The notes: generated from the letters alone by a model not told the origin. Counted from the stretch's first letter, positions 3,707-44,175 are shown. The stretch: DNA of 64,000 nt from Vicinamibacterales bacterium (GCA_035495555.1 DATJFQ010000042.1:75893-139892); one strand, 5' to 3'. Translations and numbers: made by a program.

Positions 3707-3721
3707 GTCTTCAGTCCTTTC

Positions 3722-4681: not shown

Positions 4682-4697
4682 ACCGCTCGCGAAAGTC

Positions 4698-4777
4698 GCA
4701 ATTCCCAACTGCTCATCCACGCAAGGCGGCAATTCCCAAGTCCTTGTCCGGGTGGGAATTGCGGAGTTGTGCAGTTG
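4698..4777. repeat. CCAA/TTGG low-complexity dyad element (intergenic hairpin)
   Basis: gcaattccca (4730-4739) pairs with tgggaattgc (4753-4762), and caactgc (4706-4712) pairs with gcagttg (4771-4777). Confidence 0.7.
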
Positions 4778-4831
4778 ACGGCCGCCACGATGGCGGCGTC
4801 GTCTTATGAGGCGTATACTGGAAAATCCCTT

Positions 4832-5563: not shown

Positions 5564-5580
5564 GCTACAATCCTCCGGGA

Positions 5581-6288: not shown

Positions 6289-6297
6289 GCCGGCCGC

Positions 6298-9677: not shown

Positions 9678-9680
9678 TCG

Positions 9681-10907: not shown

Positions 10908-10909
10908 CG

Positions 10910-12400: not shown

Positions 12401-12407
12401 CTCCGTC

Positions 12408-14240: not shown

Positions 14241-14435
14241 CTACTCAAACCGCGGACTCGAGTGCCGCGGATTCAGGCGCGTTCCGGTTATCGACAGGTG
14301 GGGAACAGATCTTTAGCCAGGCAGAAGCCTGGACACTCGGACGTCCTGACAGGACCCACATCCAGCCCTGCCATTCGACATCTCCTGGTGACTATAACGG
14401 AGGAAACGCTTCATTTCCAAGCGCAAATTCGTGTG

Positions 14436-15605: not shown

Positions 15606-15636
15606 GTGGTACGAGTTCAGACGACTGCGGCGGCAA

Positions 15637-16395: not shown

Positions 16396-16430
16396 GACGT
16401 ACTATAATTCATGCGCCCGCACCACTCTGC

Positions 16431-18936: not shown

Positions 18937-18937
18937 T

Positions 18938-19981: not shown

Positions 19982-20010
19982 GAGACTGCTGAAGAGCGCG
20001 GCAGATAACG

Positions 20011-20105
20011 CCCAACGCCCAATTCCCAAGTCCCAAGCTGACCCCAGCCGGAGTGTCAAGAAACTTGGGAGAGAACTTGGAGTTGGAAGTTGGGAGTTGG
20101 GAATT
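20011..20105. repeat. CCAA/TTGG low-complexity dyad element (intergenic hairpin)
   Basis: Left arm cccaacgcccaattcccaagtcccaag. Right arm cttgggagagaacttggagttggaagttgggagttgggaatt. It ends 6 nt before the ATG at 20111. Confidence 0.75.
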
Positions 20106-20110
20106 TCTTG

Positions 20111-21070
20111 ATGCACCTTTTGGTCGGCATCGATACCGAAGGCGACAATCAATGGGACGCGGCCGCGCGCGCGAACCAGCGGTTCGAGAACATCTATGCG
20201 CTGCCCCGGCTGCATGCCTTGTTCGCACGGCACGGTGTGCGGCCGACGTACGTGATCACCTACCCGGTCGCCACGGATCCCGCGTCGGCGGCGGTGCTGC
20301 GCGATCTGCGCGCGGGCGGCGACTGCGAAATCGGCGCTCACCATCACGCGTGGGAGACGCCGCCGTGCACGGCCGGGGACGTCCAGCGGCATCCCTATGC
20401 CGCCAACCTGCCGCTCGAGCAGTTCGAGGCGCAACTTGCGTCCCTCACTGATGCGATTGCCAGCGCCGTCGGCGCGCGGCCTGTGTCGTACCGCTCGGGC
20501 CGATTCGGCTTCGCAGCGGCTCACGTATCGGCCCTCGAGCGTCTCGGGTATCTCGTCGAATCGAGCGTGGCGCCGTTGTTCTACGAAGCGCACAAGCACG
20601 GTCCGGATTTCGTCGAAGCGCCGCTGCGGCCGTATTTTCTCGCATACGACAGCGCGACCGCGCCGGGATCCAGCGGCGTCCTCGAGGTACCGGTGTCGGC
20701 GGCGCTGAATCGTCGCTGGCCGTCCGCGCTGCGGTATCTCTACGCGCGCGCGCCGCGTCCGTACACGACCAGGCGCGTGCTCAAGAAGCTCGGCATTGCC
20801 CGAGTACGCTGGCTGCGCCCGTCGTATTCGTCGCTCGACGACATGATTGCCCTCGCGCGGGACCTGGCGCATGCGGGTGAACCCGTCCTGAATCTGCTGT
20901 TTCATTCGAGCGAAGCGATCGTCGGCGGGAGTCCCTATAACCGCACCGAATCGGAACTGCAGGCGTTCTGCGATCGTCTGGAGCGCTTTTTCGAGTTCGC
21001 GCAACGCGGGTTGAAGGCGGCCCCTGCGACGTTCGCGGAATTCCGCGCCGCGTATCTCGCCACCTCGTGA
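20111..21070 (+). CDS. Polysaccharide deacetylase-like (WalW-like) protein
   Basis: MHLLVGIDTEGDNQWD...PTYVITYPVATD...EIGAHHHAWE pattern. ATG at 20111 is preferred over the track start at 20090, which lies inside an intergenic repeat. Confidence 0.55.
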   Translation: MHLLVGIDTEGDNQWDAAARANQRFENIYALPRLHALFARHGVRPTYVITYPVATDPASAAVLRDLRAGGDCEIGAHHHAWETPPCTAGDVQRHPYAANLPLEQFEAQLASLTDAIASAVGARPVSYRSGRFGFAAAHVSALERLGYLVESSVAPLFYEAHKHGPDFVEAPLRPYFLAYDSATAPGSSGVLEVPVSAALNRRWPSALRYLYARAPRPYTTRRVLKKLGIARVRWLRPSYSSLDDMIALARDLAHAGEPVLNLLFHSSEAIVGGSPYNRTESELQAFCDRLERFFEFAQRGLKAAPATFAEFRAAYLATS

Positions 21071-22203
21071 GAATCCTGCACCTCACGCCGCACCTGCCGC
21101 CGGATCAGGCCGCGAACGCGCTCCTGCCCTATCAACTCGGCGAGTGGGCGGCAGCCCGCGGCGACGCCGTGCAGTACCTCGCGCACCCACCCCGCGCCGG
21201 CGCATCCGCCGCCCTACCGGGAGACGTCACGTGGATGCCGCGCACGCGCGCGGGGCTGGCGCAAAAGCTGATGCGCGCCGGGTCGATCGCGGCTGCCGCG
21301 CGCATCTGGCGCACCGCCGCCCCGCTCGTCGCCGCCGCCGATGTGGTCCACATTCACAGCAACGGGTTGCTTGCCGAGGTCGGCGCACTGGTCGCCGCAC
21401 GGCAGCGGAAGCCGTACGTGTTGACGCTCTACGGCACCGAGATCTGGCACTACCGGCCGAAACGCCGCGTCGATCTGTTCACACGTGCCTACCGCGGCGC
21501 AAACGCCGTCGTCTTCTACAGCGAACGGCTGTTGCTGCGCGCCCGCGAACTGGCGCTCGGCCGCCCGGATTGCCACGTCATTTATCCGCCGGTTTCGAAC
21601 GCCTTCTCGTTTCACGACTGGGTGACACAACAGGAAGAGCGCCTGCGGCTGGGCCTCACGGCGCGGCACGTGATCGTGAACGTCAAGCGGCTGCACCCGC
21701 TCGCCGGGCAGCGATTCCTGATCGAAGCAATGGGCGAGGTGATCCGGGAGCATCCGGACGCGCGCCTGATCATCTGCGGGACCGGCGATTTGCTCTCGGA
21801 GCTGCAGCACGTCGCGCGCGCCGCCGGTGTCGAACGTCACGTCACCTTTGCCGGCCTGGTCGACAACACGATGGTCGCAAAATACTGCGCGGCGGCCGAT
21901 CTGTTCGTCCTGCCGTCGTTGCTCGAGGCGCTCCCGACCGTCGCGGTCGAGGCGCTCGCGTCGGGGACGCCGGTCCTGTCGAGCGACAATCCCGGCGGCC
22001 TCGAACTGAACGATGTCTTCGGCAGCGACGTCGAGGTCGTCCCGCGGGAAGACTGGCTCGCGCTCGCCGACGCGATCCGCTCGAAACTCCGCAACAAACG
22101 GCGGACGATGAGCGCGACGGCGGACGTGATCGCGGCGCGGTTCCGCCCTGATGCCGTCGCGCGCCAGTATTGGGACGTGTACGATGGTGTGAGGAGGAAG
22201 TAG
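21067..22203 (+). CDS. GT4-family (GT-B) glycosyltransferase
   Basis: MRILHLTPHLPPD N-terminus. C-terminal LFVLPSLLEALPTVAVEALASGTPVLSSD (E-x7-E region). GTGA overlap with the upstream gene. Confidence 0.8.
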   Translation: MRILHLTPHLPPDQAANALLPYQLGEWAAARGDAVQYLAHPPRAGASAALPGDVTWMPRTRAGLAQKLMRAGSIAAAARIWRTAAPLVAAADVVHIHSNGLLAEVGALVAARQRKPYVLTLYGTEIWHYRPKRRVDLFTRAYRGANAVVFYSERLLLRARELALGRPDCHVIYPPVSNAFSFHDWVTQQEERLRLGLTARHVIVNVKRLHPLAGQRFLIEAMGEVIREHPDARLIICGTGDLLSELQHVARAAGVERHVTFAGLVDNTMVAKYCAAADLFVLPSLLEALPTVAVEALASGTPVLSSDNPGGLELNDVFGSDVEVVPREDWLALADAIRSKLRNKRRTMSATADVIAARFRPDAVARQYWDVYDGVRRK

Positions 22204-27575: not shown

Positions 27576-28637
27576 ATGCCGTGCCCACGCCTTGCTGGCG
27601 CCCTCGCGCTGGCGGGTTTGTGGGCGTTCAGCCCATCCGGGCCGGATGCCGCGAACGGGCGGTCGGACGCCGTCATCCCCGTTGAAACGCTTCGCGCCAC
27701 GGCTGCGCTCCCGGCGCACATCGCGGATGCGTTCGAATCACCGCGCAACTTCGAGCAGACCGATGCGGGCGAGTACTTCGTCTTCGACCGCCGCGGACAC
27801 GCGGTCTATACGGTCTCCGGCGACACGGCGCGCAAGATCATCGAGATCGGGGCGGAGCCCGGCAGGATTCTCGACCCGTCCGCGTTCGACATGGATCCGC
27901 GCGACGGCACGTTCGTCGTCGCCGACGCGCCGAACCAGCGGGAACGGATCCAAGTCTTCACCGCCGCCGGCAGCCGTCTTTCCGGGTTCACGCTTCCTGG
28001 CCGTGAACTGCCACGGATCACCTTCGACACCTTCGTGCTGAACGGCGTCGGTACCCTGCAGTTCACCGGCAATCGACTCCTCCTCAACCAGCCTGAGCGC
28101 AGCGCGCTCATCACCGAAATGATGATCGACGGGACTCCCGTGCGCACGTTCGGCAGACTGCGCCCGACGGGACACGAAGGAGATCCCGGCGTTCACACGG
28201 CGTTCAATTCGGGATTTCCGCTCGTCGATCCGGCAGGCGGTTATTACTTCGTCTTCGCTGCGGGCCCGCCGATGTTCCGGAAATACGACGCGACGGGCGA
28301 ACTGCTCTTCGAGCGTCACATCGAAGGACCGGAGATCGACGAGTACCTGCGGGCGCTCCCGACGACCTGGACGCGCCAGAAACAGCCCGACGGCACGTTG
28401 ATTCCGCTCGTCAACCCCGCGGTGCGGGCCGCCGGCGTCGATCGCCAGGGCCGCCTGTGGGTGTCACTCATCCAGCCGATGACGTATGTGTACGACCGGA
28501 CGGGAGACAAGATTCACACCGTGCAGTTCCGGGGCGCCGACATCATCGCGCCGAACAGCCTTTTTTTCACCAGGGACGGCAGGGTGCTTGTGACGCCGGG
28601 ATGTTACGAATTTTCGATCAAGAGCGTGAATCCCTAA
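27576..28637 (+). CDS. Secreted beta-propeller-like (NHL-like) protein of unknown function
   Basis: ATG lies 2 nt after the E1 stop. Signal peptide MPCPRLAGALALAGLWAFS. Repeated YFVFD/FVVAD/YYFVFA strand motifs. Confidence 0.5.
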   Translation: MPCPRLAGALALAGLWAFSPSGPDAANGRSDAVIPVETLRATAALPAHIADAFESPRNFEQTDAGEYFVFDRRGHAVYTVSGDTARKIIEIGAEPGRILDPSAFDMDPRDGTFVVADAPNQRERIQVFTAAGSRLSGFTLPGRELPRITFDTFVLNGVGTLQFTGNRLLLNQPERSALITEMMIDGTPVRTFGRLRPTGHEGDPGVHTAFNSGFPLVDPAGGYYFVFAAGPPMFRKYDATGELLFERHIEGPEIDEYLRALPTTWTRQKQPDGTLIPLVNPAVRAAGVDRQGRLWVSLIQPMTYVYDRTGDKIHTVQFRGADIIAPNSLFFTRDGRVLVTPGCYEFSIKSVNP

Positions 28638-28971
28638 TCCCTCATCGCCAATCCTCGGATCCCTCATCCGAAATCCTGAATCCCCAATCCTGAATCCCGA
28701 ATCCTCGAATCCTCGAATCCTCGAATCCCGGATCCTCAATCCGCCAATCGCTGAGGGTGGTACCCCGACTGCCAGGAGTGGAACCGCGGATCCCGAATGG
28801 TGTCAGATCGGGCCTCGAGTAGCGGATTAAGGATCTGATTCGGGGATCTGGGATTCGAAGATCCGGGATTCGAAGATCCGGGATTCGAGGATCCGCGATT
28901 CGGGATTGGGGATTCAGGATTTCGGATGAGGGATCCGAGGATTGGCGATTAGGGATGAGGGATTGACCGCT
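28638..28971. repeat. Large low-complexity inverted repeat (AATCC-rich left arm, GGATT-rich right arm) that fills the whole convergent intergenic region
   Basis: A 45-nt perfect complement (cgccaatcctcggatccctcatccgaaatcctgaatccccaatcc at about 28646-28690, against its reverse complement at about 28904-28948). Inside the arms are degenerate 6-8-nt units, e.g. gaatcctc x3 and ggattcgaagatccg x2. Confidence 0.9.
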
Positions 28972-29376
28972 CTACAACAGTTTTCCCACTGCAAGATCGA
29001 GATTGAGTTCCGCCGGATCGATGTCGAACTGCTGCGCGAGATCCGTGATTGTCTCCTGCAGCTTCATCAGGGCCATGCCGACGTTCTCGGTTTCCTCGTC
29101 CGTGAGCGTCTGATTCTCCATCCGGCGAATCGCCTGCCGCTCGAGAATCTGGCGAATCAGATCGACGAGCGTCAGCACCAGTTTCATCACCGAACGGCGG
29201 ACGTCTTCCGGGTCCGCGTTCCATCTGGGCGGACCGTGTGACGCGGCCTGGGCGATCTGTTGTCGAATCGCGTCGATCTCACGCTCGGCGCTGACAACGG
29301 CGCGCGGGCGTGTGCGCTTGACCGGTGTATGTCGGCGACCGGCAGGCTGTCTGGCGCTCGGCTTTTTACGCGTCAC
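28972..29376 (-). CDS. gvpK: Gas vesicle protein GvpK
   Basis: KLVLTLVDLIRQILERQAIRRMENQTLTDEETENVGMALMKLQE matches the GvpK family. GTG at 29376 forms a GTGA overlap with the upstream stop. The alternative GTG at 29421 would add 15 aa. Confidence 0.85.
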   Translation of the reverse strand: MTRKKPSARQPAGRRHTPVKRTRPRAVVSAEREIDAIRQQIAQAASHGPPRWNADPEDVRRSVMKLVLTLVDLIRQILERQAIRRMENQTLTDEETENVGMALMKLQETITDLAQQFDIDPAELNLDLAVGKLL

Positions 29377-30023
29377 AACAGTTCCGGCGCGAACGCGTAC
29401 GGCGCGAAAGGGCCGGACCACGTCAGCCCTGGCGCGTGGGTCCGCACGTCGGCGGCAGCCGACGCGTACGCGCCGGCGCGCACGCGATCGACGAGATGGT
29501 ACAGCGCTGCGGGCACGATTGTCGTCGCCTCAGCAAAGCGCTCTTCGGCCGCGAGGTTCGCCAGACGTCGGACACGGCGGAACGACGAGGGCGCCGGCGG
29601 GTGCGCTGCGCGAGCGGCGCGCCGCAGATAGTCGGTGCCTGAACGCGTCCGCGCCGCTTGGGCGCGGGCGCGGGCGACGGGCTCCGCCCCCGCACTGCGC
29701 CATGTGAACTGCACGCGTCCCCGGACACGATCGAAGGCCTCGCGCAGTTCCTCGCGGCGCTCGACGAACGACGTCTCCAGGTCGGACGAACTGAGCAGCG
29801 TCCCGAAGCGCACCGGAAGAATGGCTGGAACGAGCGCGGCGAGGCGCTCGACGATACGTTCGTGGGCCTGCAGCGTTCCGAAGTCGAAAGGAGGCACATC
29901 CGCGCGCCGTTCGACCACCGCGAATCCTCCATCGATCCGCCGGACGGCGAGCGGACCGCTGAGGCCGCGTCCCGGTTTCGGGGGCGGCGCGTCGACGACC
30001 GCGAACACGTACCACGCCATCAC
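29373..30023 (-). CDS. Gas vesicle protein, GvpF/GvpL family (third copy)
   Basis: WYVFAVVD...AHERIVERLAALVPAILPVRFGTLLSS...RGRVQFTW matches the GvpL_GvpF pattern. Confidence 0.8.
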   Translation of the reverse strand: MMAWYVFAVVDAPPPKPGRGLSGPLAVRRIDGGFAVVERRADVPPFDFGTLQAHERIVERLAALVPAILPVRFGTLLSSSDLETSFVERREELREAFDRVRGRVQFTWRSAGAEPVARARAQAARTRSGTDYLRRAARAAHPPAPSSFRRVRRLANLAAEERFAEATTIVPAALYHLVDRVRAGAYASAAADVRTHAPGLTWSGPFAPYAFAPELL

Positions 30024-30394
30024 CGTGAGCGGAGCGGCAACACGCGATCCGCGGCGCAGAGCAGGGCGGACAGGCGCAGGTACACAAGATCGACGTTCGC
30101 GAGCGCCAGGATCACTTCCGCATTGAGCACGACGCCTTTGCTGAGCAGGTTATCCACGATGTCGAGAAGCGTTGCGTCGTCTGAATCGATGATGCGGCCC
30201 GCTTGACGCCTCGCGGACGCACCCGTGCGCGGACCCGGCTTGCGGCTGGACGGCGGACGCCGCCGAGGCGCAGACGGCTTCAGCGCCGGCCGGGCACGCC
30301 GGCCGCCGACGGTTGTATGCCGCGGTCGCGGTCCCACGGTGCTTCGGAGGGCAGCGCGCGGTGGACGCGGGCGGCCTTTACGTCTTTTCGCCAT
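30020..30394 (-). CDS. GvpA/J/M-family small gas vesicle protein (GvpM-like) with a roughly 70-aa basic N-terminal extension
   Basis: ATLLDIVDNLLSKGVVLNAEVILALANVDLVYLRLSALL core. The N-terminus MAKRRKGRPRPPRAALRS... is rich in R/P/K. Confidence 0.8.
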   Translation of the reverse strand: MAKRRKGRPRPPRAALRSTVGPRPRHTTVGGRRARPALKPSAPRRRPPSSRKPGPRTGASARRQAGRIIDSDDATLLDIVDNLLSKGVVLNAEVILALANVDLVYLRLSALLCAADRVLPLRSR

Positions 30395-31184
30395 CGTTCC
30401 CGATGAAATTGTAGGCCGGCCACGGTCCGGTCAGCGTCATCCTGGCCCCCGCGGCCGCGCAGCGCGCCGCCTCTTTCCGCGCTGCCGCCTTGAACCGCGC
30501 GCGCGAGGAACTCGGGACGAGAAACGCGGCATCGAGAAGCGGCGGTGTGGCGCCCTCATCGCGGCGTTCGGGCCGTTGCCGGGCGGCGCGAGTGATTGCC
30601 GCCAGCGATTCATACGCCTCTTCCGCGGCCGCCGCGGTTCGGAGGCGGAAATCGTGCTGCGCATCCCGGACAGCCTTGCGCGACGCGAGGAAAGCGGACC
30701 CCGTCAGGGGCGCTGACGTCCGCGCGCGTCGCACCGCCACCGACTGGACACCCGGTTCCGCGAACACCCTGATCCCCCACTCCTCACATCCGGCGATACG
30801 CCGCACCGCGCGGCGGATGTCTTCGCGCTCGCGCAGCAATTCTTCACGCGCGCTCTCGACGGACGAGAAGATTGTCAGCAGTTTCATGGGAATCACCGTC
30901 GATCCGCGGCGACGCGTGAAGTATTCGACGACCGCCTCGTGGCCGACCGCGATTGCAGACACCCACTCCAGGTCGCGCAATCCGGCATTCACCGCGTGCT
31001 CTCCGTACATCGCGATGGGCACCCCCGCGGCGATGAACCACAGCTTTCCCGTGAGCAGCACCGGCTCCGGCCGTGCAGCGCCGGGGATACCGGCGGGCAC
31101 GCCGCCGAGCGGCGGCCGCGAGGGCGACGCGACGACACAGTAGACGTACGTCGCGTTCACGGTGCTCAATTGACGGCGCGCCAT
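30378..31184 (-). CDS. Gas vesicle protein, GvpF/GvpL family (second copy)
   Basis: Start at MARRQLSTVNATYVYCVVAS. HEAVVEYFTRRRGSTVIPMKLLTIFSS...EEWGIRVF. The 407-aa track ORF is over-extended into the ArsA-like gene. Confidence 0.8.
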   Translation of the reverse strand: MARRQLSTVNATYVYCVVASPSRPPLGGVPAGIPGAARPEPVLLTGKLWFIAAGVPIAMYGEHAVNAGLRDLEWVSAIAVGHEAVVEYFTRRRGSTVIPMKLLTIFSSVESAREELLREREDIRRAVRRIAGCEEWGIRVFAEPGVQSVAVRRARTSAPLTGSAFLASRKAVRDAQHDFRLRTAAAAEEAYESLAAITRAARQRPERRDEGATPPLLDAAFLVPSSSRARFKAAARKEAARCAAAGARMTLTGPWPAYNFIGNDGEKT

Positions 31185-33061
31185 CGTGATCTCCACGCCT
31201 GCAGCACGTCGACGCCATGAGGCGGGGGCAGGGCGGATGGAGTGACGATGATAGCGTAAGGCCCGCGGTCCGCCAGTTGCGCGCGGAGGGAGCCGAGTTC
31301 GCGGCGCTGTCTCCCCTCGATCGAACGACAGCGGGGGCACGAGCCGGCGCCGAACGCGTTCACGATCACCGCGCGGACAGCCACACCAAGGGCGTCGAGC
31401 GACCGTTGAAGCGCCAGCGTTTCCTCGCGCGGCACCGCTGCGGCGCGGGTGACGATGACGAAGGCGGTTTGGTTCCTGTCGCGAACGATCGTGTCGAGCG
31501 CGCGCAGCCGCTGCGACAGATCGACAAGGAGCTGCGCGAACGCACCAGGGCGCACGATCTCGCGATACTTCAGGAGAATGGCCATCAAGGCCTGCGTCCA
31601 CTCGCGAAGGATTGCCGGTGTCTCGAGCAGCCGCAGCGCGTGGCCCGTCGGCGCCGTGTCGGTGACGATCGTGCGGTACGAACCGCGTCCGTTCAGCAGT
31701 TCTGCGACCTCCGCAATGGCGATCACTTCGTCGAGACCGGGCGGTGTGAATTCGATGAGTTCGCGGAGGGCGCTCCGGTCGGGGGTCGGGTCGAGCGTCG
31801 ACCGCGTCAGGCCGTCGAACATCGCGTCAACGGCGCCCGTGTAGCGGGCGCGAAACTGCTGCAGGCCGCGAGCGGCATCGATTTCGCGCACGTCGAGATT
31901 CGGAAGGCCCCCGGCCAACGGCGCTGCCGAATCGCTTACGCGCACGCCGAGCACGTCGCCGAGCGAGTGCGCGGGGTCGGTAGACAGGAGCAGAAACGAT
32001 TCGTTCGGACTCGCCCGTGCGAGATCGACCGCCAGCGCGGCGCCGCACGTCGTTTTCCCCACACCCCCCTTCCCGCTCACGAGCAGCCACCGCGCATCGA
32101 AGATCGACTTGCCAACAGCAGTCGTTCGAATGCCGTGGGCAATGGCTCCATACAGCCGCCGGCGAAGCGGTGACGGGCGCGTGACCTGTTGCGCCCGCGA
32201 ACAGGTGGATGCAAGCGACCGGAGCGCGGCGGCATTACGAGGTTCCGTCTCGGATTCCGCGACCGTTCTGACGCGGATGGCCGGAAAGCATGCGGCGATC
32301 GGTGCCAGCGCGCGCGCCTCGAAGCGGCGGCGCGCCGCATCCCACTCGCAGCCGCCGCGAGGCGTCGCGCGGTTCACGATGAGCGTTCGTACGCGAATGC
32401 GGCTGGCGGCGAGCGCGGTGAGCGCGTCGGCCGTCTCTTCCAGCGCCATTGGCTCCGGAAGCGTCACCCACACGAACTCGGATTGCCTCTCGTCTCGCAG
32501 GCGGGTCGTCAGCAGCGTCGAATCCTCGGCGAGCGACGCAATCAACCGGTCCGCCGCGTCCTCCCGATAGCGCCCCGTGAGCGCCCGGACCACACCCCGG
32601 TGGTGCAACTGCAGGCCGTCCAGCACCTCCGCCATACGGGCGGCGAGCACCGGCATCGCGAGGAGCCGCAGCGTGTGGCCAGTCGGCGCCGTGTCCACCA
32701 CGACTCGTTCGTAGCGTGATTCCGAGAGACGCACGATCTCGAGCAGCGCCGCGACTTCGTCGATTCCCGGGAGCGAGAGCGCCAGCAGCCGGTGGACATC
32801 GTCCTCGTCGAGGTACGTCCCGCGCACCGCGATGGCTGCGAGGAGATCCTCGCGCGGTGCCAGCCAGGCCCGGAATGCGGCCCTCGCATCGATCGCGCGC
32901 ACGTCCAGCCGCGCCGGACGGCCGGAAAATCCAAAGCTCCGACGGACGGAGGCCGCGGGGTCAGTGGAAACGAGCAGCGTCCGGCAGTGGTGGGCGGAGC
33001 GGAACGCGATGGCTGCTGCGCAGGTGGTCTTGCCGACCCCGCCTTTGCCGCCCACGAGCAC
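31166..33061 (-). CDS. Tandem-duplicated ArsA/Get3-type P-loop ATPase
   Basis: Two halves, each with a deviant Walker A GKGGVGKTT(C) and the DTAPTGH(T/A)LRLL signature. There is a CPRC pair near the C-terminus. GTG start 11 nt after the gvpG stop, and the 3-prime end overlaps the next gvpF/L by 19 nt. Confidence 0.85.
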   Translation of the reverse strand: MLVGGKGGVGKTTCAAAIAFRSAHHCRTLLVSTDPAASVRRSFGFSGRPARLDVRAIDARAAFRAWLAPREDLLAAIAVRGTYLDEDDVHRLLALSLPGIDEVAALLEIVRLSESRYERVVVDTAPTGHTLRLLAMPVLAARMAEVLDGLQLHHRGVVRALTGRYREDAADRLIASLAEDSTLLTTRLRDERQSEFVWVTLPEPMALEETADALTALAASRIRVRTLIVNRATPRGGCEWDAARRRFEARALAPIAACFPAIRVRTVAESETEPRNAAALRSLASTCSRAQQVTRPSPLRRRLYGAIAHGIRTTAVGKSIFDARWLLVSGKGGVGKTTCGAALAVDLARASPNESFLLLSTDPAHSLGDVLGVRVSDSAAPLAGGLPNLDVREIDAARGLQQFRARYTGAVDAMFDGLTRSTLDPTPDRSALRELIEFTPPGLDEVIAIAEVAELLNGRGSYRTIVTDTAPTGHALRLLETPAILREWTQALMAILLKYREIVRPGAFAQLLVDLSQRLRALDTIVRDRNQTAFVIVTRAAAVPREETLALQRSLDALGVAVRAVIVNAFGAGSCPRCRSIEGRQRRELGSLRAQLADRGPYAIIVTPSALPPPHGVDVLQAWRSRWRAVN

Positions 33062-33072
33062 GAGCGGCGCGT

Positions 33073-33372
33073 TCAGTGCTCGTCGCCCTCGAACGTGGCT
33101 TCGATGCCGGTGATGCGCATGTCGGACGAAGACGCGATGGCGGCTTCGCCGCCCCGCTGCCGTTCCCGAATTTCCCGGATACGCGCGAGGATCTCTGCTT
33201 CGAGCGCGTCGAACTCGCCCTGTGTCATCTCCCCCAGCTCGACGCGCATTTGCGCCGCGAGGAGGTGCTCGTGCAGCGCCGACTCGTCGTTCATCTCCGT
33301 GTCGACGGCCGCAGCCACCTTGTCGAGCACGAAGCGAATCCCCGAAATCAGCAGACTGTCAACGATCAGCAT
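33073..33372 (-). CDS. gvpG: Gas vesicle protein GvpG
   Basis: MLIVDSLLISGIRFVLDKVAAAVDTEMNDESALHEHLLAAQMRVELGEMTQGEFDALEAEILARIREI matches the GvpG family pattern. Confidence 0.8.
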   Translation of the reverse strand: MLIVDSLLISGIRFVLDKVAAAVDTEMNDESALHEHLLAAQMRVELGEMTQGEFDALEAEILARIREIRERQRGGEAAIASSSDMRITGIEATFEGDEH

Positions 33373-33402
33373 TCAGCTTCGCCGTTCGGCACTCGCCATG
33401 GC

Positions 33403-34320
33403 TCAATGCGCCCGTTCGAGCTTCAGCCGGATGTTCACGAAATTGTACGGCGGCCACGGGCCGGTGTACTTGAACGTGAGCTTGTCGAACTGCTGTCCGA
33501 TCTGCTTGACGCGCGCGTCGAAGGCGCCTTCCGTCTCACGCGAGACGAGGAACGCGGCGTTCATGATCATCCGATCCCCGATAGGCTTGTTCGATCGCGA
33601 CGCCACCGACACGTTGCGGAGCGCGTTGAAGATGTCTGCCACGTATCGTTCGGAACGCGACTGCAGGGCGGCGTCGATCAAGCGCCCGTACTGCATCCGC
33701 GCGAAATAGGTGGAGCCCTTCTGCGACGAGATCTCGGTTTTCAACCGCCGGATGTCTTCGTCGTCCTCTTCGATTTCGCGGATGATCTGATCGCGGTCCC
33801 AGAGCACTTTCAGGCCGAACTCGAACTTTTCCTGCATCTTGTTCAGCACGTCGCTGAACGCGTCGTACGCCGAGCGCAGCAGCTCCATGATGTCGTCGTC
33901 GGTCTTGAACACGGTGCCGAACGACATCGGGATGACCGTGTGCTTCTGCATGACGGTCTCGTTCACGCGCTGGTGCGCCAGCACGTTCTCGCGCGTCGGA
34001 TCCTGAATCACGATCGGCGTGTTCGATACGACGGCCCCGATGTCGCGATAGTGCACCGTGTGCACGTCGGCGGGCTCGGGGCCGAGTCCCAGCGGGCCGA
34101 AGCTCAGAGGCTGCTCCGATCGGATGATGCAGTAGACATACTTGCCTTCCGGCCGGTCCTCACGCCTGGTCGTCTGCGGGACCCGCACGCGTTCGAGCTT
34201 GCCCCGGCCGGCGTCCTGGCGGGCGATGCTGGCGCGCTCGAGCGGCGGCTTTCGCGCCGGCGGTTCCGGCTTGCGGGGCGAGGTCTTCGATTTCGACGCT
34301 TTCTTTGCCGCTTTTGCCAT
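33403..34320 (-). CDS. gvpF: Gas vesicle protein GvpF/GvpL family (first copy) with a roughly 60-aa Lys/Pro-rich N-terminal extension
   Basis: KYVYCIIRSEQ...IGAVVSNTP...AHQRVNETVMQKHTVIPMSFGTVFKTDDD...FEFGLKV...YTGPWPPYNF. Confidence 0.85.
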   Translation of the reverse strand: MAKAAKKASKSKTSPRKPEPPARKPPLERASIARQDAGRGKLERVRVPQTTRREDRPEGKYVYCIIRSEQPLSFGPLGLGPEPADVHTVHYRDIGAVVSNTPIVIQDPTRENVLAHQRVNETVMQKHTVIPMSFGTVFKTDDDIMELLRSAYDAFSDVLNKMQEKFEFGLKVLWDRDQIIREIEEDDEDIRRLKTEISSQKGSTYFARMQYGRLIDAALQSRSERYVADIFNALRNVSVASRSNKPIGDRMIMNAAFLVSRETEGAFDARVKQIGQQFDKLTFKYTGPWPPYNFVNIRLKLERAH

Positions 34321-34332
34321 ACGGTCTGAGCC

Positions 34333-34767
34333 TCAGGATCGCTTCCGGGTGCCGCGGGACGCCCGTCCGTCGGCCCCCGTCGGCTGCCGATCGAGCAGCC
34401 GCCGGATCTCTGCCACCAAGGCGTCCGGCAGGCACGGCTTGGTCACGAACGCATCACAACCGGCCTGCCTCGCGCCTTCGGCGTGTCCGGCGAGCGCATG
34501 GCCGGTCAACGCGACGACGGGGATCTTCCGGGTCCGTTCATCACTCTTGAGGCGCCGTGTCGCCTCCCACCCGTCCATGCGGGGGAGCGCGAGGTCCATG
34601 AGGATGATGTCGGGCATCAGGCGCTGCGCCTTCTCGATGGCCTCGATGCCGTTGGTCGCTTCCGCGACCTCGTACCCGGAGAACTGCAGGTACGCCGCGT
34701 ACATCTCACGTGCATCCTGATAGTCCTCCACGACGAGCACCAGGGGCTGGTCGCGCCGGCTCTTCAT
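34333..34767 (-). CDS. Single-domain (CheY-like) response regulator with no output domain
   Basis: LVLVVEDYQD...DIILMDLALPRMDGWE...PVVALTGH...FVTKP. Its ATG overlaps the kinase stop (ATGA). Confidence 0.85.
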   Translation of the reverse strand: MKSRRDQPLVLVVEDYQDAREMYAAYLQFSGYEVAEATNGIEAIEKAQRLMPDIILMDLALPRMDGWEATRRLKSDERTRKIPVVALTGHALAGHAEGARQAGCDAFVTKPCLPDALVAEIRRLLDRQPTGADGRASRGTRKRS

Positions 34768-36896
34768 CGCCGCCTCGGGCGCGCGGGCAGCCGCAGTGTA
34801 AACGTCGATCCTTCTCCCTGTGTACTGGTCAAGTCGATCGTGCCTCCGAGCATCTGTGACAATCTCCGGCAAATCGAGAGACCAAGACCCGTGCCGCCAT
34901 AGCCGCGCGTGGGTGAGCTGTCGAGCTGACGGAAGTCCTCGAAGACCTTGGCCTGATCTTCCTTCGCAATGCCGACACCCGTATCTCGCACGGAGATCGA
35001 CATCTGCTTGGCGCGGCGCTCGAATGCCGCCTGGATGGTGACCGATCCCGCCGGCGTGAACTTCAAGGCATTGCTGAGCAGGTTCAGCACGATCTGCTTG
35101 ACCTTCTGGCGGTCGCTCCGGAGTTTCGGCAGCGGTCCTTTGGCCTTCGACGTGACGGCGAGATTGCTGCGGCGGATGATCGGCTCGAGCTCCGCCATCA
35201 CCTCCGCGATCAAATCCCCCACAGCGAACGAGGTCACGTTCAGCGGCATCCGGCCGGCTTCGATCCGTGTGATGTCGAGGATGTCGTTGATCAGGGCGAG
35301 CAGGTGCCGCGAGTTCGAGTCAATCCGCGTCAGGCTCTTGCGCTGCGGCTCGGTCACCTGTCCGGTCACGTTGTTGAGCAGCATGTGCGTGTAGCCGAGG
35401 ATCGCGTTCAGCGGCGTCCGGAACTCGTGCGACATGTTGGCGAGGAACTGCGATTTCAGCGCGGACGCCTGCTCGAGCTCGATGTGCTGCCGCCGCAGCA
35501 GCTCGTTCTGTTCGGCGAGTTCGGCCGTCGCTTCCTGCACTTTCCGTTCGAGCTGTTCCGATGCGTGCTTCAACTGCTCGTACAGCTTTCCCTTCTCGAT
35601 CGCCTCCGTGAGATCGTGCAGGATCGTCACGACCCACATCAGTTCGCCCTGTTCCGACAGGATCGTGCCCGCCAGCGCTTCGACCGGCAGCGGACGACCT
35701 GTGACGGGGTCGGCCAGCTGGATCTCACCGCGATAGCGCTGCTCTCCCGAGCGCGTCAGCACGTTGGACACGAACGAGGTCAGGTTTGCGCCGTTCGCGC
35801 GCACGCGCCGCAGCGCGGCTTCCATCTCCGTCGCCGGCGACGGGCTGAACAGCCGTTCCGCCGGTGTATTCATCAACACGATGTCGCCTTCCTGATCCGT
35901 CACGAGGATCGGGTCGGCAACCGAGTCGATGATCAGATCCAGCCGGTGGCGCTCGTCGCGCACTTCCGCCTGAGCGACCCGCAGCGTCCGATAGCTCTCT
36001 TCGATTTCTTCCTTCGCGCGCGCCAGGTCCGTCACGTTGCGGAGGATCGATACGACGAACGTCCCCTGCCGCTCGTCCTTCGCGCGGGAGCTGAGCAGCT
36101 CGAACAGCAGATCGGACCCTTCGAGCGGGTCCACCAGCAGCAGCTCGCGGCGCGCGAGCTCCGACATCGTGACGGCGCTCGTGGACAACGCCGCAGAGAA
36201 CAACATGTTGTTGAGCGCGACGGCCCGGCGCCAGCCCTCGCTCGACTCTTCAGGGGCGGCAAACAGCTTCTCCGCATGGCTGTTCGCGATGATCAGTTTG
36301 CCTTCCGTGTCGGTGAGCAGAATCGGGTCGGTGACCGCATTGATGATGCTGTAGAGCAGCATCCGCTCCTGGCCGAATCGCGTCTCCGCCAGCAGTTGTC
36401 GGCTGAGCAGCCTCGAAACCTGTTTTCCGAGCGTGCGCGCCAGCCACAGCGTGTCCGGATCGATCTGCGGGGACGCCGTGCTGGCAAGGAGGAGCCCCTG
36501 CGCCGTTTCACGGGTGTCGGCCCGCAGCGGGATCGCGTGAAACGCGCGCGCCTCGATGGGCGCTCGCAGATGGGGCGGCAGGGTGGAGATGAAGACCGGC
36601 TCCGGACTCGAGAGCGCCTGGACGAGCGGGTGCTTCCCATCGTCCCGGCTCAGCGCGAAGTCCATGATCGCGGCGCTCGAAACGCCGTGCTCCGCGACGA
36701 GCAGCATCTCGTTCGAGAGCGCCTCGACGACGAGCACGACGGCCTGCTCCACGGGCGCGTGAGCGACGACCCAGTCCACGGCCCGCCGCGCGGACTCCTG
36801 GATGTCCATGCTCGTCAGCAGAAATTCGACGAGCGCGAGCTTCGGTTCCGAATCCAGCGACGACACGGACGCCATCTGCGCCGCCACGCGCGACAC
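34764..36896 (-). CDS. Cytoplasmic GAF/PAS-PAS sensor histidine kinase
   Basis: H-box SHEFRTPLNAILGY, N/G boxes LLSNALKFT and GTGLGLSICRRL, and two PAS-like segments (VTDPILLTDTEGKLIIAN, VADPILVTDQEGDIVLMN). No obvious TM segment. GTG start 6 nt after the gvpA stop. Confidence 0.85.
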   Translation of the reverse strand: MSRVAAQMASVSSLDSEPKLALVEFLLTSMDIQESARRAVDWVVAHAPVEQAVVLVVEALSNEMLLVAEHGVSSAAIMDFALSRDDGKHPLVQALSSPEPVFISTLPPHLRAPIEARAFHAIPLRADTRETAQGLLLASTASPQIDPDTLWLARTLGKQVSRLLSRQLLAETRFGQERMLLYSIINAVTDPILLTDTEGKLIIANSHAEKLFAAPEESSEGWRRAVALNNMLFSAALSTSAVTMSELARRELLLVDPLEGSDLLFELLSSRAKDERQGTFVVSILRNVTDLARAKEEIEESYRTLRVAQAEVRDERHRLDLIIDSVADPILVTDQEGDIVLMNTPAERLFSPSPATEMEAALRRVRANGANLTSFVSNVLTRSGEQRYRGEIQLADPVTGRPLPVEALAGTILSEQGELMWVVTILHDLTEAIEKGKLYEQLKHASEQLERKVQEATAELAEQNELLRRQHIELEQASALKSQFLANMSHEFRTPLNAILGYTHMLLNNVTGQVTEPQRKSLTRIDSNSRHLLALINDILDITRIEAGRMPLNVTSFAVGDLIAEVMAELEPIIRRSNLAVTSKAKGPLPKLRSDRQKVKQIVLNLLSNALKFTPAGSVTIQAAFERRAKQMSISVRDTGVGIAKEDQAKVFEDFRQLDSSPTRGYGGTGLGLSICRRLSQMLGGTIDLTSTQGEGSTFTLRLPARPRRR

Positions 36897-36902
36897 GGGT
36901 GT

Positions 36903-37223
36903 TTACCCCTCGACGTTTCGGCGGCGCCCGCTGCGTCCTTTGGACGCGGCGAGTTCGGCACGCAGTGCCGCGTTCTCGGCAATGACGTCCTGGTGGGAGG
37001 GCAGTTCGGCCGCGGGACGCGACACCGGGGCGACCTGGCCGACCGCTTCGGAATACTTCAGATAGGTGTCGATTGACGCCACCACGACGCGCGCCTCGAC
37101 GGTGATCAGGTCGATGCCCACCAGCGACACGCGAACCCACGCGTCGATGACGATGCCTTTGTCGAGCACGCGGTCGAGGACGTCGATGAGACTCGTGCCG
37201 CCTGCAGCTCGTTCAACTGCCAT
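36903..37223 (-). CDS. gvpA: Major gas vesicle structural protein GvpA (with C-terminal extension)
   Basis: [52 protein letters not shown] is near-canonical GvpA. A GGGAGAG Shine-Dalgarno lies 7 nt upstream of the ATG. Confidence 0.95.
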
Positions 37224-37247
37224 GTCATGTCTCTCCCAAGCTACCGT

Positions 37248-37583
37248 TCAACGCCGGCGGCGGGTCGCGCCCCGGGGGACTGAAAGTGCATCCACACGTG
37301 CCTGCAACTCCTGCAGCTGGGCTCGCAACTGGTCGTGTTCGGCGATGCCGGCGCGCGTCGCGCCGGGCGAGAGATCACGATCGTACCGCCACCAGTCGAG
37401 ACCGATCTCCTGAGCCTTGTCGAGCGAGCAGACGAGAAGGCGGATACGAATCGTCAGCAGCTCGACTTCGGCCAGGGACACCTTGATGTCGCCGGCGATG
37501 ACGAGCCCCTTGTCGAGCACGCGGTCCAGGACGTCGACCAGTCCTGTCCCGCGCTGGTGGGACCCTGGGAGCTCGAGAGGCAT
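37248..37583 (-). CDS. gvpJ: GvpJ-like small gas vesicle protein (GvpA/J family)
   Basis: [52 protein letters not shown]. Start at MPLELPG. The track ORF extending to 37721 runs into gnd. Confidence 0.85.
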   Translation of the reverse strand: MPLELPGSHQRGTGLVDVLDRVLDKGLVIAGDIKVSLAEVELLTIRIRLLVCSLDKAQEIGLDWWRYDRDLSPGATRAGIAEHDQLRAQLQELQARVDALSVPRGATRRRR

Positions 37584-41622: not shown

Positions 41623-42795
41623 CTAACGCCTCTCGAGGAATGCGAGCGCTTTGGGTGTCCCAAGGAGGCGGAGGTTCGTGCGGGCGACCGCGCGAAGGGC
41701 CGGGTCGGGGTCGGACTGCGCGATGCGAATGAGCTCGTCTTCGTCGCGCGCGTTGAAGAGCGCCGTCAGCAATGCCTTGCGGCTGTCGGCGGGCACCGCC
41801 TTGTAGAGGATGCGCAGCTCGTCGCGGCCGCCGGCGCGGCCGAGCGTGACGATCGCGGTGTTGCGAACCGTCACGTCGCCCTCCGACTGCGCGATGCGCA
41901 GGAGCGCCGATTTGTCGGACCGTTCGCCGAGGGACGTCACCACCTCGCGCTTCACCCGCGGCGTACCGGCGTGATACACGTCCAGCAACTCCCGCGATAC
42001 GTTCGGATTGGCAAAGCGTCCCAGTTCCTTGACGGCTTCAACCCGCACCGGCTCCGCCGCAAGCTTTGCGACTTCCAGCACCGACGACTGCGCCTTCGGG
42101 TTCGAGGACTGCGCGAGCACGAACACCGCGCGGCGGCCGTCACCGGGCGATGCGGGATCCAGCGCAATTTCCTTCAGCAGGGGAATGACGCGATCCGGGT
42201 GCGTCTGCATCAGGCTCCCGAGCGCCTGAATCCTGAGATTCGTGTCCGGCGGCAGCGGCGACATGACCCAGACATTCGCCTCCGGCGCGAGCGGCGGATT
42301 CGACGGTACGGCGAGCGCCGGCTGCGGCGGCAGCGGCGCGATGACAGGGGTGGGACGCGGTGACCGCGGTCGCATCGAGGTCGCGGGCGCAGCAGGCGCG
42401 GGCGGTGCAGGAGCGACGGCCGGCGTTTCGGGGCGCGCCGTCTGCCAGAGCACGTCGTCGCGATTCAGCTTCTGGGCAATCTCGAGGCGAAGCGACTGCG
42501 CGAACCGGATCCACGGACTCGACGGAAATTCCCGCTGCAGGCGCGCAATGGTTTCGAGCGCCGCGACCTGCTCGCCTGTCTGATTCTGACAATGCGCCAG
42601 CCAGAACATCGCTTCGGCGCGGCTCGGCTCTTTGGGATCGGCCGCGGCGGCTTTGAGATCCGCGATCGCGCTCACCCAATGCTCGTCCGCGATGGCGTCC
42701 TTGGCATGCGCCATCCGCCTGGATTCTGCCGGTGCCGCCGAAGCCGCCGCAGCGATCATCGAGTACCCAACCAGGAAAACAAAGAATCGTCGCAT
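41623..42795 (-). CDS. Secreted TPR/HEAT-repeat protein downstream of the ECF sigma/anti-sigma pair
   Basis: Start at MRRFFVFLVGYSMIAAAASA (signal peptide). The C-terminal half has HEAT-like repeats (DPALRAVA...). Confidence 0.6.
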   Translation of the reverse strand: MRRFFVFLVGYSMIAAAASAAPAESRRMAHAKDAIADEHWVSAIADLKAAAADPKEPSRAEAMFWLAHCQNQTGEQVAALETIARLQREFPSSPWIRFAQSLRLEIAQKLNRDDVLWQTARPETPAVAPAPPAPAAPATSMRPRSPRPTPVIAPLPPQPALAVPSNPPLAPEANVWVMSPLPPDTNLRIQALGSLMQTHPDRVIPLLKEIALDPASPGDGRRAVFVLAQSSNPKAQSSVLEVAKLAAEPVRVEAVKELGRFANPNVSRELLDVYHAGTPRVKREVVTSLGERSDKSALLRIAQSEGDVTVRNTAIVTLGRAGGRDELRILYKAVPADSRKALLTALFNARDEDELIRIAQSDPDPALRAVARTNLRLLGTPKALAFLERR

Positions 42796-42796
42796 G

Positions 42797-43579
42797 TCAG
42801 ATCCCCGAACCCACCACATTCATCTTGACGACCAGATCGCGACGCGCGATCAATCGCTGCACGCGCTGCAGCGCGTCGGGATCGGCGCGTTCGCTCATCG
42901 ACGTCTCGAGCAGGACGGTCTCCAGATCGCCGAGGACGCGCGCGAGGTCCGTCATCCCGCGATCCTCCGCCGCCAGTCGATACAAGCGCGTGTCGGGCAG
43001 CAGCGACGTCGCGAGCTGACGCTCGTGCTGCCAGTCGGTCGCGCGCGCGTGCTGCGGATCGAGCGTCGCGAGCCCGAGCACGACGAGTTTCGACCGTTCG
43101 AAATGTTCTTCGCTGTGCTCCACGAGCGACCGGTCGCCGACCGTCGCGGCGGTGCGATCCAGCCCGGAATCCGGGTCCGCTGGAATCGCCCCCACGCGCG
43201 CGGGGGTCGCCGGCGCTGACGCTGGCGAAGACGGTTCCTGCCGCGCCCGACTCGTCAACAGAGCACCGCTCGCGACGATCGTCAGGGTCGCCGCGATCGC
43301 CAGCCACGGCATGATCCGGCGGCTCCGCTCCGGAGCGGCTGTCGTCGCGATTGCCGCCTCCAGCCGTCGACTGAAGCCGGACCAGTCGCCCGCCGGCGGC
43401 CCCTCGACACGGCCGCGCGAGGCGAGCGCCGCGCGAATCGACCGCAAATCATCGAGGTGCTGGCGGCACGTGGCGCACCGCTGCAGATGCTGTTCGAGCC
43501 GCGCGCGCGCCGCCGCCTCGAGCTCGCCGTAGAAGTACTGCTCGATCGCCGCGGCGTCCACGAATTCGCAGGCTTTCAT
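42797..43579 (-). CDS. Anti-sigma factor (zf-HC2 type)
   Basis: HLQRCATCRQHLDDL (H-x3-C-x2-C) near the N-terminus and a central TM segment. ATGA overlap with the sigma gene. Confidence 0.75.
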   Translation of the reverse strand: MKACEFVDAAAIEQYFYGELEAAARARLEQHLQRCATCRQHLDDLRSIRAALASRGRVEGPPAGDWSGFSRRLEAAIATTAAPERSRRIMPWLAIAATLTIVASGALLTSRARQEPSSPASAPATPARVGAIPADPDSGLDRTAATVGDRSLVEHSEEHFERSKLVVLGLATLDPQHARATDWQHERQLATSLLPDTRLYRLAAEDRGMTDLARVLGDLETVLLETSMSERADPDALQRVQRLIARRDLVVKMNVVGSGI

Positions 43580-44175
43580 GCGCGCCCTCCAACCGTAACC
43601 CGTGACGCCAGCAGGGCCGCGCGCAGCCGGTGCACCGCCGCATGCAGCTGGCGCTTGACGGTGCCTTCTGCAAGCCCCAGCGCCTCCGCGATTTCGCAGA
43701 GCTTCAGCCCTTCATGATGCCGCATGGTGAAGATCAGACGCTGGCCGGCGGGGAGCCGTGCGATCTCCGCCTGCAGCACGTCCCCGAGCTGAAGCCCGTA
43801 TGCGGCGTCCTCCGGGCCTGGGCGTTCCTCGGGCGCGTTCAACATCTTTTGCTCCGCATCCTCGGTGAACGGCGCCCATCCCGCGGGCGCCTGCCTCCGC
43901 CGGTGGTCGATGCAGGCGTTCATCGCGATGCGATACAGCCATGACGTGAGCTGCGCGTCGTAGCGGAAGCGGTCGAGCGACCGGTACACCTTGATGAACA
44001 CGTCCTGCGCAATGTCTTCCGCGTCGTGGTGATTGCCCGCAAACTGATACGCGACGCGATACACCATGGCGCGATGGCGCTCCACCAGCGCATGAAAGGC
44101 GGACGCGTCCCCGGCGGCCGCACGGGCGACAAGGTCCGAATCGGCCGCCGAACGGAATGCGCCGTCCACTGTCAT
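43576..44175 (-). CDS. ECF-type RNA polymerase sigma factor (sigma-70 family)
   Basis: Region 2 (DAEDIAQDVFIKVY, SWLYRIAMN) and region 4 (LKLCEIAEALGLAEGTVK). Confidence 0.9.
   Translation of the reverse strand: MTVDGAFRSAADSDLVARAAAGDASAFHALVERHRAMVYRVAYQFAGNHHDAEDIAQDVFIKVYRSLDRFRYDAQLTSWLYRIAMNACIDHRRRQAPAGWAPFTEDAEQKMLNAPEERPGPEDAAYGLQLGDVLQAEIARLPAGQRLIFTMRHHEGLKLCEIAEALGLAEGTVKRQLHAAVHRLRAALLASRVTVGGRA

Follow-up and report, generated by a model that had tools for sequence, protein, structure and literature searches.

Can a bacterium of a soil lineage build gas vesicles from an operon that encodes neither GvpN nor GvpC? The question is raised by eleven open reading frames (ORFs) on the minus strand of a 64-kb stretch of Vicinamibacterales DNA, hereafter the window, which belongs to a contig of at least 217 kb and to which our statements on gene absence and neighbouring genes mainly apply. 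The ORFs occupy positions 28972-37583 and encode, in the order of transcription, a GvpJ-like protein, GvpA, a PAS-domain histidine kinase, a stand-alone receiver, a GvpF/L protein, GvpG, an ArsA/Get3-type ATPase, a second GvpF/L, a GvpM-like protein, a third GvpF/L and GvpK. We propose, from comparison of sequences, that this is probably a functional and vertically maintained gas-vesicle (gvp) operon of a Vicinamibacterales chromosome, and that it represents a distinct class of such operons which lacks GvpN and GvpC and contains ArsA. As TypA of the window is 100% identical to a protein of the NCBI entry 'MAG TPA: Vicinamibacterales bacterium' and its ADOP permease scores 787 bits against a cut-off of 622, the window is assigned to the Acidobacteriota, order Vicinamibacterales, in keeping with the attribution to Acidobacteria made in an earlier, sequence-only reading of the same DNA.

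The shell protein itself leaves little room for another identity. GvpA scores 113 bits with the NCBIfam model NF006874 (cut-off 100 bits), its residues 1-70 align without a gap to the Anabaena GvpA of the cryo-electron microscopy shell structure 8gbs (E-value 1.3e-24, 44 of 70 residues identical), and its residues 1-64 align with B. megaterium GvpB (7r1c); judged by these alignments the core is that of a canonical shell-forming protein. The Pfam Gas_vesicle domain (gathering cut-off 25 bits) is recognised in GvpA at 61.4 bits, in the GvpJ-like protein at 61.6-62.5 bits and in the GvpM-like protein at 45.2 bits, the last having GvpM as its best NCBIfam match, below that model's cut-off. The three GvpL_GvpF paralogues (cut-off 23.6 bits), GvpG (30.6 bits) and GvpK (25 bits) likewise exceed their thresholds with the scores given in Table 1, as does the ATPase, so that the gene identities proposed in the sequence-only reading stand, with the exception of one kinase domain discussed below. 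The accessory set of J, M, three F/L, G and K is thus complete, and the label 'minimal' given to the system in that reading was too modest for gvp genes with an accessory set plus three further genes. The packing described there, with ATGA and GTGA couplings, is also present: the spacings in transcription order are +24, +6, -4, +12, +30, +11, -19, -17, -4 and -4 nucleotides, the 4-nucleotide overlaps being ATGA between kinase and receiver and GTGA at both gvpM/gvpF/L-3 and gvpF/L-3/gvpK.

All eleven genes are under purifying selection and the operon is not decaying. Measured against two metagenomic relatives of the same gene order, whose ArsA proteins are 89% and 80% identical to that of the window, the ratio of nonsynonymous to synonymous substitution (dN/dS) lies between 0.03 and 0.36 throughout. 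Values for single genes are 0.03 for GvpA, 0.04 for GvpJ, 0.04-0.06 for gvpF/L-1, 0.06-0.10 for the kinase, 0.08-0.13 for the receiver, 0.15-0.19 for gvpF/L-3, about 0.2 for gvpM and 0.28-0.36 for gvpF/L-2. GvpA, GvpJ, the first GvpF/L and the kinase are constrained to the same degree as the neighbouring gnd (0.06).

That the window has no GvpN, GvpC or GvpO, as the sequence-only reading had asserted, was upheld by each of the scans applied. A six-frame search for Walker A motifs in ORFs of at least 120 residues returned only the ArsA-type ATPase (two sites), TypA, an ORF with a GNAT domain and one spurious antisense ORF; phmmer with three GvpN proteins from related loci, each verified above the TIGR02640 cut-off, found no match in the window at an E-value of 10 or less; and Pfam and NCBIfam scans of selected plausible ORFs of the window returned housekeeping functions and no GvpO, GvpC, GvpH or Hsp20. 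There is no repeat protein within the cluster, and a divergent GvpC elsewhere in the genome is possible.

The operon was next compared with its relatives. When an ArsA profile was run against a set with a single genome for each species, it yielded 80 loci, none of them from the source genome of the window; 46 have gvp genes beside ArsA, and these fall into three architectures. Type I lacks GvpN and has the order J-A-kinase-receiver-F-G-ArsA-F-M-F-K; it is found in the window, in other Acidobacteriota, Terriglobia, Rokubacteria, Labilithrix (Myxococcota) and Planctomycetota. Type II, also without GvpN, reads F-G-ArsA-F-M-F-K-J-A-kinase and is found in Gemmatimonadaceae and Longimicrobiales. Type III, A-N-F-G-ArsA-J-K-J, contains GvpN and occurs in deltaproteobacterial lineages, a Gemmatimonas, Spirochaetes, Verrucomicrobia, a planctomycete, Chloroflexi, a firmicute and a methanogen. 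Because orthology between type I and type II kinases extends beyond the catalytic core, we regard these two types as the same two modules in swapped order; five or more phyla have the modules J-A-kinase(-receiver) and F-G-ArsA-F-M-F-K. Conservation of the order reaches far, since one related locus (L004; L- and P-numbers label related loci and homologous proteins in this analysis) has a gene order identical to that of the window although its ArsA is only 52% identical. In a neighbour-joining tree without support values the ArsAs of types I and II form sister clades, apart from those of type III and from ArsAs outside gvp clusters.

The operon might nevertheless be canonical after all and work together with a gvpN, and perhaps a gvpC or gvpO, at another site of the genome. 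The window is 64 kb of a much longer contig, and the related loci give only 5-10 kb of flanking sequence. Yet when gvpN occurs in clusters of the ArsA type it sits inside the cluster, directly after gvpA in 11 of the 12 loci in which the preceding gene is visible, and in the GvpN-less clade it is the kinase that holds this slot; none of some 18 type I and II loci from five phyla has gvpN in its flanks; and the GvpN-less state travels together with a tail on GvpA, an orthologous kinase and a separate ArsA clade. Dispersed canonical genes are, in the light of these regularities, distinctly improbable.

The tail on GvpA is the second feature which sets these clusters apart. Beyond its core the GvpA of the window continues with a 14-residue unit ([14 protein letters not shown]) and then an arginine-rich end. 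All 17 GvpAs examined from type I and II loci are 98-125 residues long and share a conserved C-terminal segment (SRP, followed by ENAxLRxxL), the arginine-rich terminus being an addition of type I, whereas the GvpAs of all 11 bacterial type III loci are 71-74 residues long, end soon after the core and lack the tail. In a search of 5.8 billion proteins the best 120 matches to GvpA are all extended, at 106-175 residues; some of them represent clusters of more than 100 member sequences, and the sole named source is Vicinamibacterales. Their alignment shows the 14-residue unit in two or three tandem copies in several homologues, with a conserved RRRxxxEG terminus. Among near-identical metagenomic homologues (such as P0243, P0275, P0299 and P0316) the number of copies ranges from one to three while the core is invariant. 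The tail is predicted to be helical in an AlphaFold monomer model, a prediction of which we make weak use because the same model renders the core wrongly, as all-helical with a pLDDT of 54. A repeated amphipathic helix borne by the shell protein itself, in clusters without GvpC, suggests that the tail may be a cis-acting counterpart of GvpC.

These observations also bear on whether the operon makes gas vesicles at all. It could be cryptic with respect to buoyancy, its host forming no gas-filled vesicles in nature or using another GvpA assembly in some other role in soil, for instance against stress or desiccation. Such a role would suit an organism of a soil lineage from a phylum for which no vesicles have been reported, and there is a precedent in Streptomyces coelicolor, also without GvpN and GvpC, which is not reported to produce vesicles and whose cluster yielded none in E. 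coli (Hurt et al. 2023, PMC10344784). Against it stand the strong purifying selection on a GvpA that has almost the same core as proven shell proteins, the retention of the full accessory set over five phyla, and the great abundance of extended-tail GvpA in metagenomes. We therefore hold a cryptic operon to be unlikely.

The third distinguishing feature is the ATPase. It matches ArsA_ATPase with 295 bits over two stretches and carries two GKGGVGKT loops in one chain, together with the switch motifs TDPA and DTAPTGH. Among proteins of the PDB it is most similar in sequence to Chlamydomonas ARSA1 (1.4e-58) and Get3 (1e-42), with E. coli ArsA behind them (9e-28); it scores 302 bits with TIGR00345, the TRC40/GET3/ArsA subfamily (cut-off 135 bits), and with 159 bits remains far below the 650-bit cut-off of the arsenical-pump model TIGR04291. 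Three alignment columns that hold cysteine in 9 of 11 ArsAs outside gvp clusters, and which we take to be the metalloid triad C113/C172/C422 of E. coli ArsA, are occupied by other residues in all 25 gvp-linked ArsAs, and by G99, E167 and G442 in that of the window. Most ArsAs of types I and III have two CxxC motifs of the kind that binds zinc in Get3, and type II ArsAs have neither; in the window the first has become C238-x-x-D241 and the second, C575-x-x-C578, is intact. The AlphaFold (AF2) model of the protein (pLDDT 78.6) is matched by Foldseek to ArsA, ArsA1 and Get3 alike (fold matches 9nbo and 1f48).

The gene of this ATPase lies close to gvpG. In most of the gvp loci surveyed gvpG lies directly upstream of arsA, and the two are adjacent in more than 30 loci from more than 10 phyla. 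In the sub-lineage of the window the first P-loop begins only 23 nucleotides past the gvpG stop, while the leader of type III ArsAs is of normal length, about 16-22 codons. In the window a GTG precedes the first P-loop glycine by four codons; this codon is GTC in the relative with 80% identity, and three related loci (L005, L007 and L087) lack any ATG, GTG or TTG in the reading frame. The window, L086 and L087 share a CTG, at 33076 in the window, that overlaps the stop codon of gvpG (CACTGA) and is in frame with arsA. The start of arsA is ill-defined, and translation may begin at this CTG instead. One metagenomic relative (P0024/L085) has an in-frame fusion of GvpG and ArsA. Taken together, the missing cysteines, the proximity to ARSA1 and Get3, the adjacency to gvpG and the tight junction or fusion argue that ArsA would be a dedicated Gvp factor that works with GvpG and not the subunit of an arsenic pump.

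That arsA might simply be an arsenic-resistance ATPase which happens to sit in the operon is suggested by its JGI name and by a predicted fold that matches ArsA structures best. We consider this extremely unlikely, as the cysteine columns hold other residues, the sequence of the protein is nearer to those of Get3 and ARSA1 than to that of E. coli ArsA, its adjacency to gvpG spans phyla, and Pfam scans of the window ORFs found no arsenic-resistance family (no arsB, acr3, arsD, arsR or arsC); Castillo and Saier had come to the same conclusion for the ArsA homologues of gvp clusters (PMC2963123). The JGI name, given to the window protein and to its homologues, is 'arsenite-transporting ATPase', and because the arsenite-binding cysteines are absent it is probably wrong for the whole gvp-linked clade, a misleading label wherever it is attached to such genes. 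Nor can ArsA be regarded as a simple substitute for GvpN, since the two co-occur widely, ArsA adjoining GvpG in 15 loci that also hold GvpN.

The fourth feature is a signalling pair placed between gvpA and the first gvpF/L. HisKA (74.8 bits), HATPase_c (106.3 bits) and PAS domains are present in the kinase and Response_reg (91 bits) is the only domain of the receiver, which has no output domain; the motifs SHEFRTPLN and ILMDLALP, with the phospho-accepting histidine of the kinase and the conserved aspartate of the receiver, can be read in the translations. Of the GAF/PAS sensor described in the sequence-only reading the PAS part is confirmed, and the GAF part fell short of threshold (19.4 against 22.4 bits, E-value 0.0016, over the full length of the model). 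The claim that the operon has a signalling module of its own fared better. Wherever a type I or II locus is informative, an orthologous kinase follows gvpA directly, although the two types order their modules differently. The match to the kinase of the window is end to end in type I, and in type II it begins at about residue 65-172 and runs to the C-terminus. It takes in the PAS sensor region in addition to the catalytic core, at E-values of about 1e-210 and 1e-140, while kinases found near type III clusters match over the catalytic core only. In the GvpN-less clade as a whole the kinase is thus orthologous and syntenic, and it is under the same degree of constraint as the gvp genes.

It could still be argued that kinase and receiver are an unrelated, captured neighbour with no role in vesicle formation, as neither an output domain nor a target is encoded and the receiver is absent from type II clusters. 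The conservation of the kinase, sensor domains included, behind gvpA across the two types, its position 6 nucleotides after that gene, its ATGA coupling to the receiver and dN/dS values of 0.06-0.13 for the pair make such a capture very unlikely. Two related loci have irregular kinases: an apparent hybrid kinase in L004 (6178-8757) was considered as a receiver fusion and rejected, its HATPase segment lying in another frame as a frameshift artefact of a long-read assembly, or else as a pseudogene, and in L021 (6188-8817) fragmented kinase and ArsA genes are frameshift artefacts or pseudogenes of a long-read metagenome-assembled genome (MAG).

We propose the following model for vesicle formation by the operon. 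GvpA would polymerise into the ribbed shell, for which J/M, F/L, G and K would provide nucleation and a scaffold, as they do in the systems studied so far. The tandem Get3-like ATPase would be made in step with GvpG, as the tight coupling and the fusion in one relative indicate, and would use ATP to hold or hand over the hydrophobic proteins of the GvpA family, providing the sole ATP-driven step where GvpN is missing. The amphipathic C-terminal tail of GvpA would reinforce the surface in cis, in the manner in which GvpC does so in trans. Finally, the PAS kinase and the single-domain receiver would couple an intracellular signal to the production of vesicles and, because no DNA-binding output is encoded here, would act through an unlinked regulator or by direct protein-protein control. 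In its most extended form the proposal is that a third architectural class, common among the uncultured bacteria of soil in at least five phyla, builds vesicles without GvpN and GvpC, with a GvpC-like repeat helix in cis whose copy number varies between strains, a Get3-like ATPase coupled or fused to GvpG as the only energy-consuming chaperone, and a PAS kinase that gates assembly; we put this forward tentatively, as a possibility that we would not favour in all its parts.

Several points weigh against the operon being a functional member of a distinct class. The literature found contains no demonstration of gas vesicles in an organism with this type of cluster, or in any acidobacterium, and the GvpN-less cluster of S. 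coelicolor gave none in E. coli. The analysis covered 64 kb of the genome, and a gvpN or gvpC may be present outside it. Context is the basis of the roles proposed for ArsA, for the tail of GvpA and for the kinase; structure search cannot tell ArsA from Get3, the single GvpG-ArsA fusion could be an assembly error, and the ArsA tree carries no support values. The correlations at the level of the clade, moreover, represent one or two evolutionary events and not independent replicates.

The components of the model are not all new. Castillo and Saier (2010, PMC2963123) described ArsA homologues within the gvp clusters of four phyla, including Acidobacteria bacterium Ellin345, as non-arsenical homologues without the cysteines and with a function other than arsenic transport. 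The review by Pfeifer (2022, PMC9501494) gives gvpA, C and FGKLN as conserved in all clusters and lists that of Streptomyces coelicolor as gvpOAFG-JLSK. The ATPase presented in the sequence-only reading as different has therefore been known from gvp clusters since 2010, clusters without GvpN are not unprecedented, and the claim of novelty was in these two respects too strong. Its remark that gas vesicles have not been demonstrated in Acidobacteria agrees with what we found: among papers retrieved for 'gas vesicle' with Acidobacteria, Acidobacteriota or Gemmatimonad none is, by title and abstract, evidently on gas vesicles in these groups, and the supplements of Hurt et al. (2023), which tabulate confirmed producers, contain no 'Acidobacter', 'Gemmatimon' or 'Planctomyc', though Isosphaera is listed. 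Searches joining 'gas vesicle' with Get3 or Koribacter found no literature, and no paper was found that describes the type I or II architecture. What does appear to be undescribed is a conserved GvpN-less clade in Acidobacteriota, Rokubacteria, Myxococcota, Planctomycetota and Gemmatimonadota, and the combination of hallmarks by which it would be recognised seems new: the PAS kinase after gvpA, three GvpF/L proteins, a Get3-like ArsA without the arsenite cysteines and tightly coupled to GvpG, and a tailed GvpA. Operons of this kind form a widespread class in uncultured bacteria.

Among known systems the nearest are the clusters of Castillo and Saier (Pelodictyon luteolum, Polaribacter irgensii, Anabaena/Nostoc) and our type III loci, such as L014 from an uncultured Desulfobacterium, in which a tandem ArsA without arsenite cysteines, and mostly with CxxC motifs, stands beside gvpG among gvpA, F/L, G, J/M and K genes. 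P. luteolum is on the Hurt list of proven producers. Clusters of this kind differ from the window in having gvpN right after gvpA, a tailless GvpA of 71-74 residues, a normal ArsA leader and start, and no orthologue of the PAS kinase. The cluster of Ellin345 (Ca. Koribacter versatilis), from the same phylum, has arsA with two L/F genes, one J, K and M and no N listed, but is known as a gene list only (PMC2963123), with no kinase, GvpA tail or vesicle phenotype reported. S. coelicolor shares with our organism the soil habitat and the lack of gvpN and gvpC; its cluster has gvpO, which the window lacks, and lists neither arsA nor a kinase. The GvpB of B. megaterium (88 residues) is also longer than cyanobacterial GvpA and comes from a cluster without gvpC, yet that cluster has gvpN, and the tail in the window is longer and has the 14-residue unit and the RRRxxxEG end.

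Outside gas-vesicle systems the ATPase most resembles Get3/TRC40 and the chloroplast protein ARSA1, which are targeting factors for tail-anchored proteins and with which it shares the fold, the switch motifs, the second of the two CxxC motifs and, with ARSA1, a tandem pseudo-dimeric arrangement. It differs from them in the CxxD form of its first CxxC motif and in its presumed clients, which would be hydrophobic Gvp proteins in the soluble phase and not membrane proteins; we know of no Get1, Get2, Get4 or Get5 partners in bacteria. A precedent for dedicated regulators inside a gvp locus is provided by gvrA, gvrB and gvrC of Serratia sp. 39006, a system which includes a transcription factor of the NtrC type, whereas the window has a cytoplasmic PAS kinase and an output-less receiver between gvpA and gvpF. 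The three Serratia genes are listed as specific regulatory genes in the review (PMC9501494).

If this class makes vesicles, buoyancy organelles would extend to the Acidobacteriota and to other dominant phyla of soil, which would raise the question of what flotation does in water-filled pores or in flooded soils. GvpN and GvpC would then be dispensable where other solutions exist, and the long-noted gvp-linked ArsA would gain a testable role as a Get3-like chaperone in bacteria. Furthermore, a shell protein with a built-in tail of variable copy number and a cluster free of GvpC would be new parts for acoustic reporter genes.

The features of the operon and its 3′ hairpin are collected in Table 1. 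Two gene boundaries deserve comment: gvpK most likely starts at 29376, with the GTGA overlap and at the length of the JGI calls, and not at 29421, and the extent of the long N-terminus of the gvpM-like ORF, rich in arginine and proline, is uncertain, JGI calls in close relatives being 45-93 residues long.

Table 1. Genes and hairpin of the putative gas-vesicle operon, genes in transcription order (aa, amino acids; bits refer to Pfam models).
Feature	Position	Strand	Remarks
gvpJ-like	37248..37583	-	111 aa; first operon gene, GvpA-family paralogue; same 111-aa call by JGI
gvpA	36903..37223	-	106 aa; core residues 1-64 plus C-terminal tail of ~40 residues
sensor histidine kinase	34764..36896	-	710 aa, cytoplasmic; weak GAF-like, PAS, PAS, HisKA, HATPase_c
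stand-alone receiver	34333..34767	-	144 aa; start overlaps kinase stop (ATGA); same 144-aa call by JGI
gvpF/L paralogue 1	33403..34320	-	305 aa; GvpL_GvpF 257.6 bits
gvpG	33073..33372	-	99 aa; GvpG 54.6 bits
tandem ArsA/Get3-fold P-loop ATPase	31166..33061	-	631 aa from GTG at 33061
gvpF/L paralogue 2	30378..31184	-	268 aa from ATG, 272 aa from upstream GTG; GvpL_GvpF 130.6 bits
gvpM-like	30020..30394	-	GvpA-family domain at residues 75-113; 45.2 bits
gvpF/L paralogue 3	29373..30023	-	216 aa; GTGA overlap with gvpM; GvpL_GvpF 64.5 bits
gvpK	28972..29376	-	134 aa; GvpK 98.2 bits; GTGA overlap with gvpF/L-3
very long hairpin of heptamer repeats	28626..28967	.	immediately 3′ of gvpK, in convergent intergenic region

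The hairpin is a palindrome of about 340 nucleotides with 87-nucleotide arms that are 93% complementary, GAATCCC being repeated on one arm and GGGATTC on the other, and as RNA it folds at -252 kcal/mol (z -17.8). The heptamer is found nowhere else in the window; L087, L086 and L004 have analogous heptamer palindromes at the same position with diverged sequences. It is possibly a bidirectional terminator or a structure that stabilises the transcript. Scans of 28.4-41.8 kb for sigma-70 promoters returned no promoter-like sites and for intrinsic terminators only sites at chance level, both being uninformative for this phylum, and as no Rfam family reached its gathering score in the whole window no known riboswitch or leader is present.

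The operon is embedded in core chromosome, with zwf-opcA-gnd on one side and a conserved hypothetical gene and an E1 dehydrogenase on the other, a context common to close relatives only. A gap of 46 nucleotides separates gnd, upstream on the same strand, from gvpJ. A functional tie of zwf-opcA-gnd to the gvp operon was considered and rejected as lineage synteny, since the arrangement is confined to Vicinamibacterales-like relatives and these genes are not upstream in other phyla with the same gvp architecture. The hypothetical gene (27577-28637, plus strand; 353 residues in the JGI call, no Pfam match) converges with gvpK and is found beside the operon in each of the Vicinamibacterales-like loci L004, L021, L086 and L087, though not in other phyla. 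Directly upstream of zwf-opcA-gnd, on the strand of the operon (41623-44175, minus), lie genes for an extracytoplasmic function (ECF) sigma factor, a zf-HC2 anti-sigma factor and a HEAT/TPR protein. Further away, 2744-22203 is a large region of the surface-glycan type with an epimerase, methyltransferases, two PMT_2 glycosyltransferases, GT2, GT4 and a polysaccharide deacetylase, as well as radical-SAM proteins, two of them with SPASM domains and one of the B12-binding type. Within its bounds a 610-residue ORF (12408-14240, minus strand), which failed the codon-bias filter, begins with a signal-like segment and ends in five or six repeats of about 33 residues, each CT.VQPG.GWTCVNG.WLPPGS followed by runs of threonine, serine and glycine.

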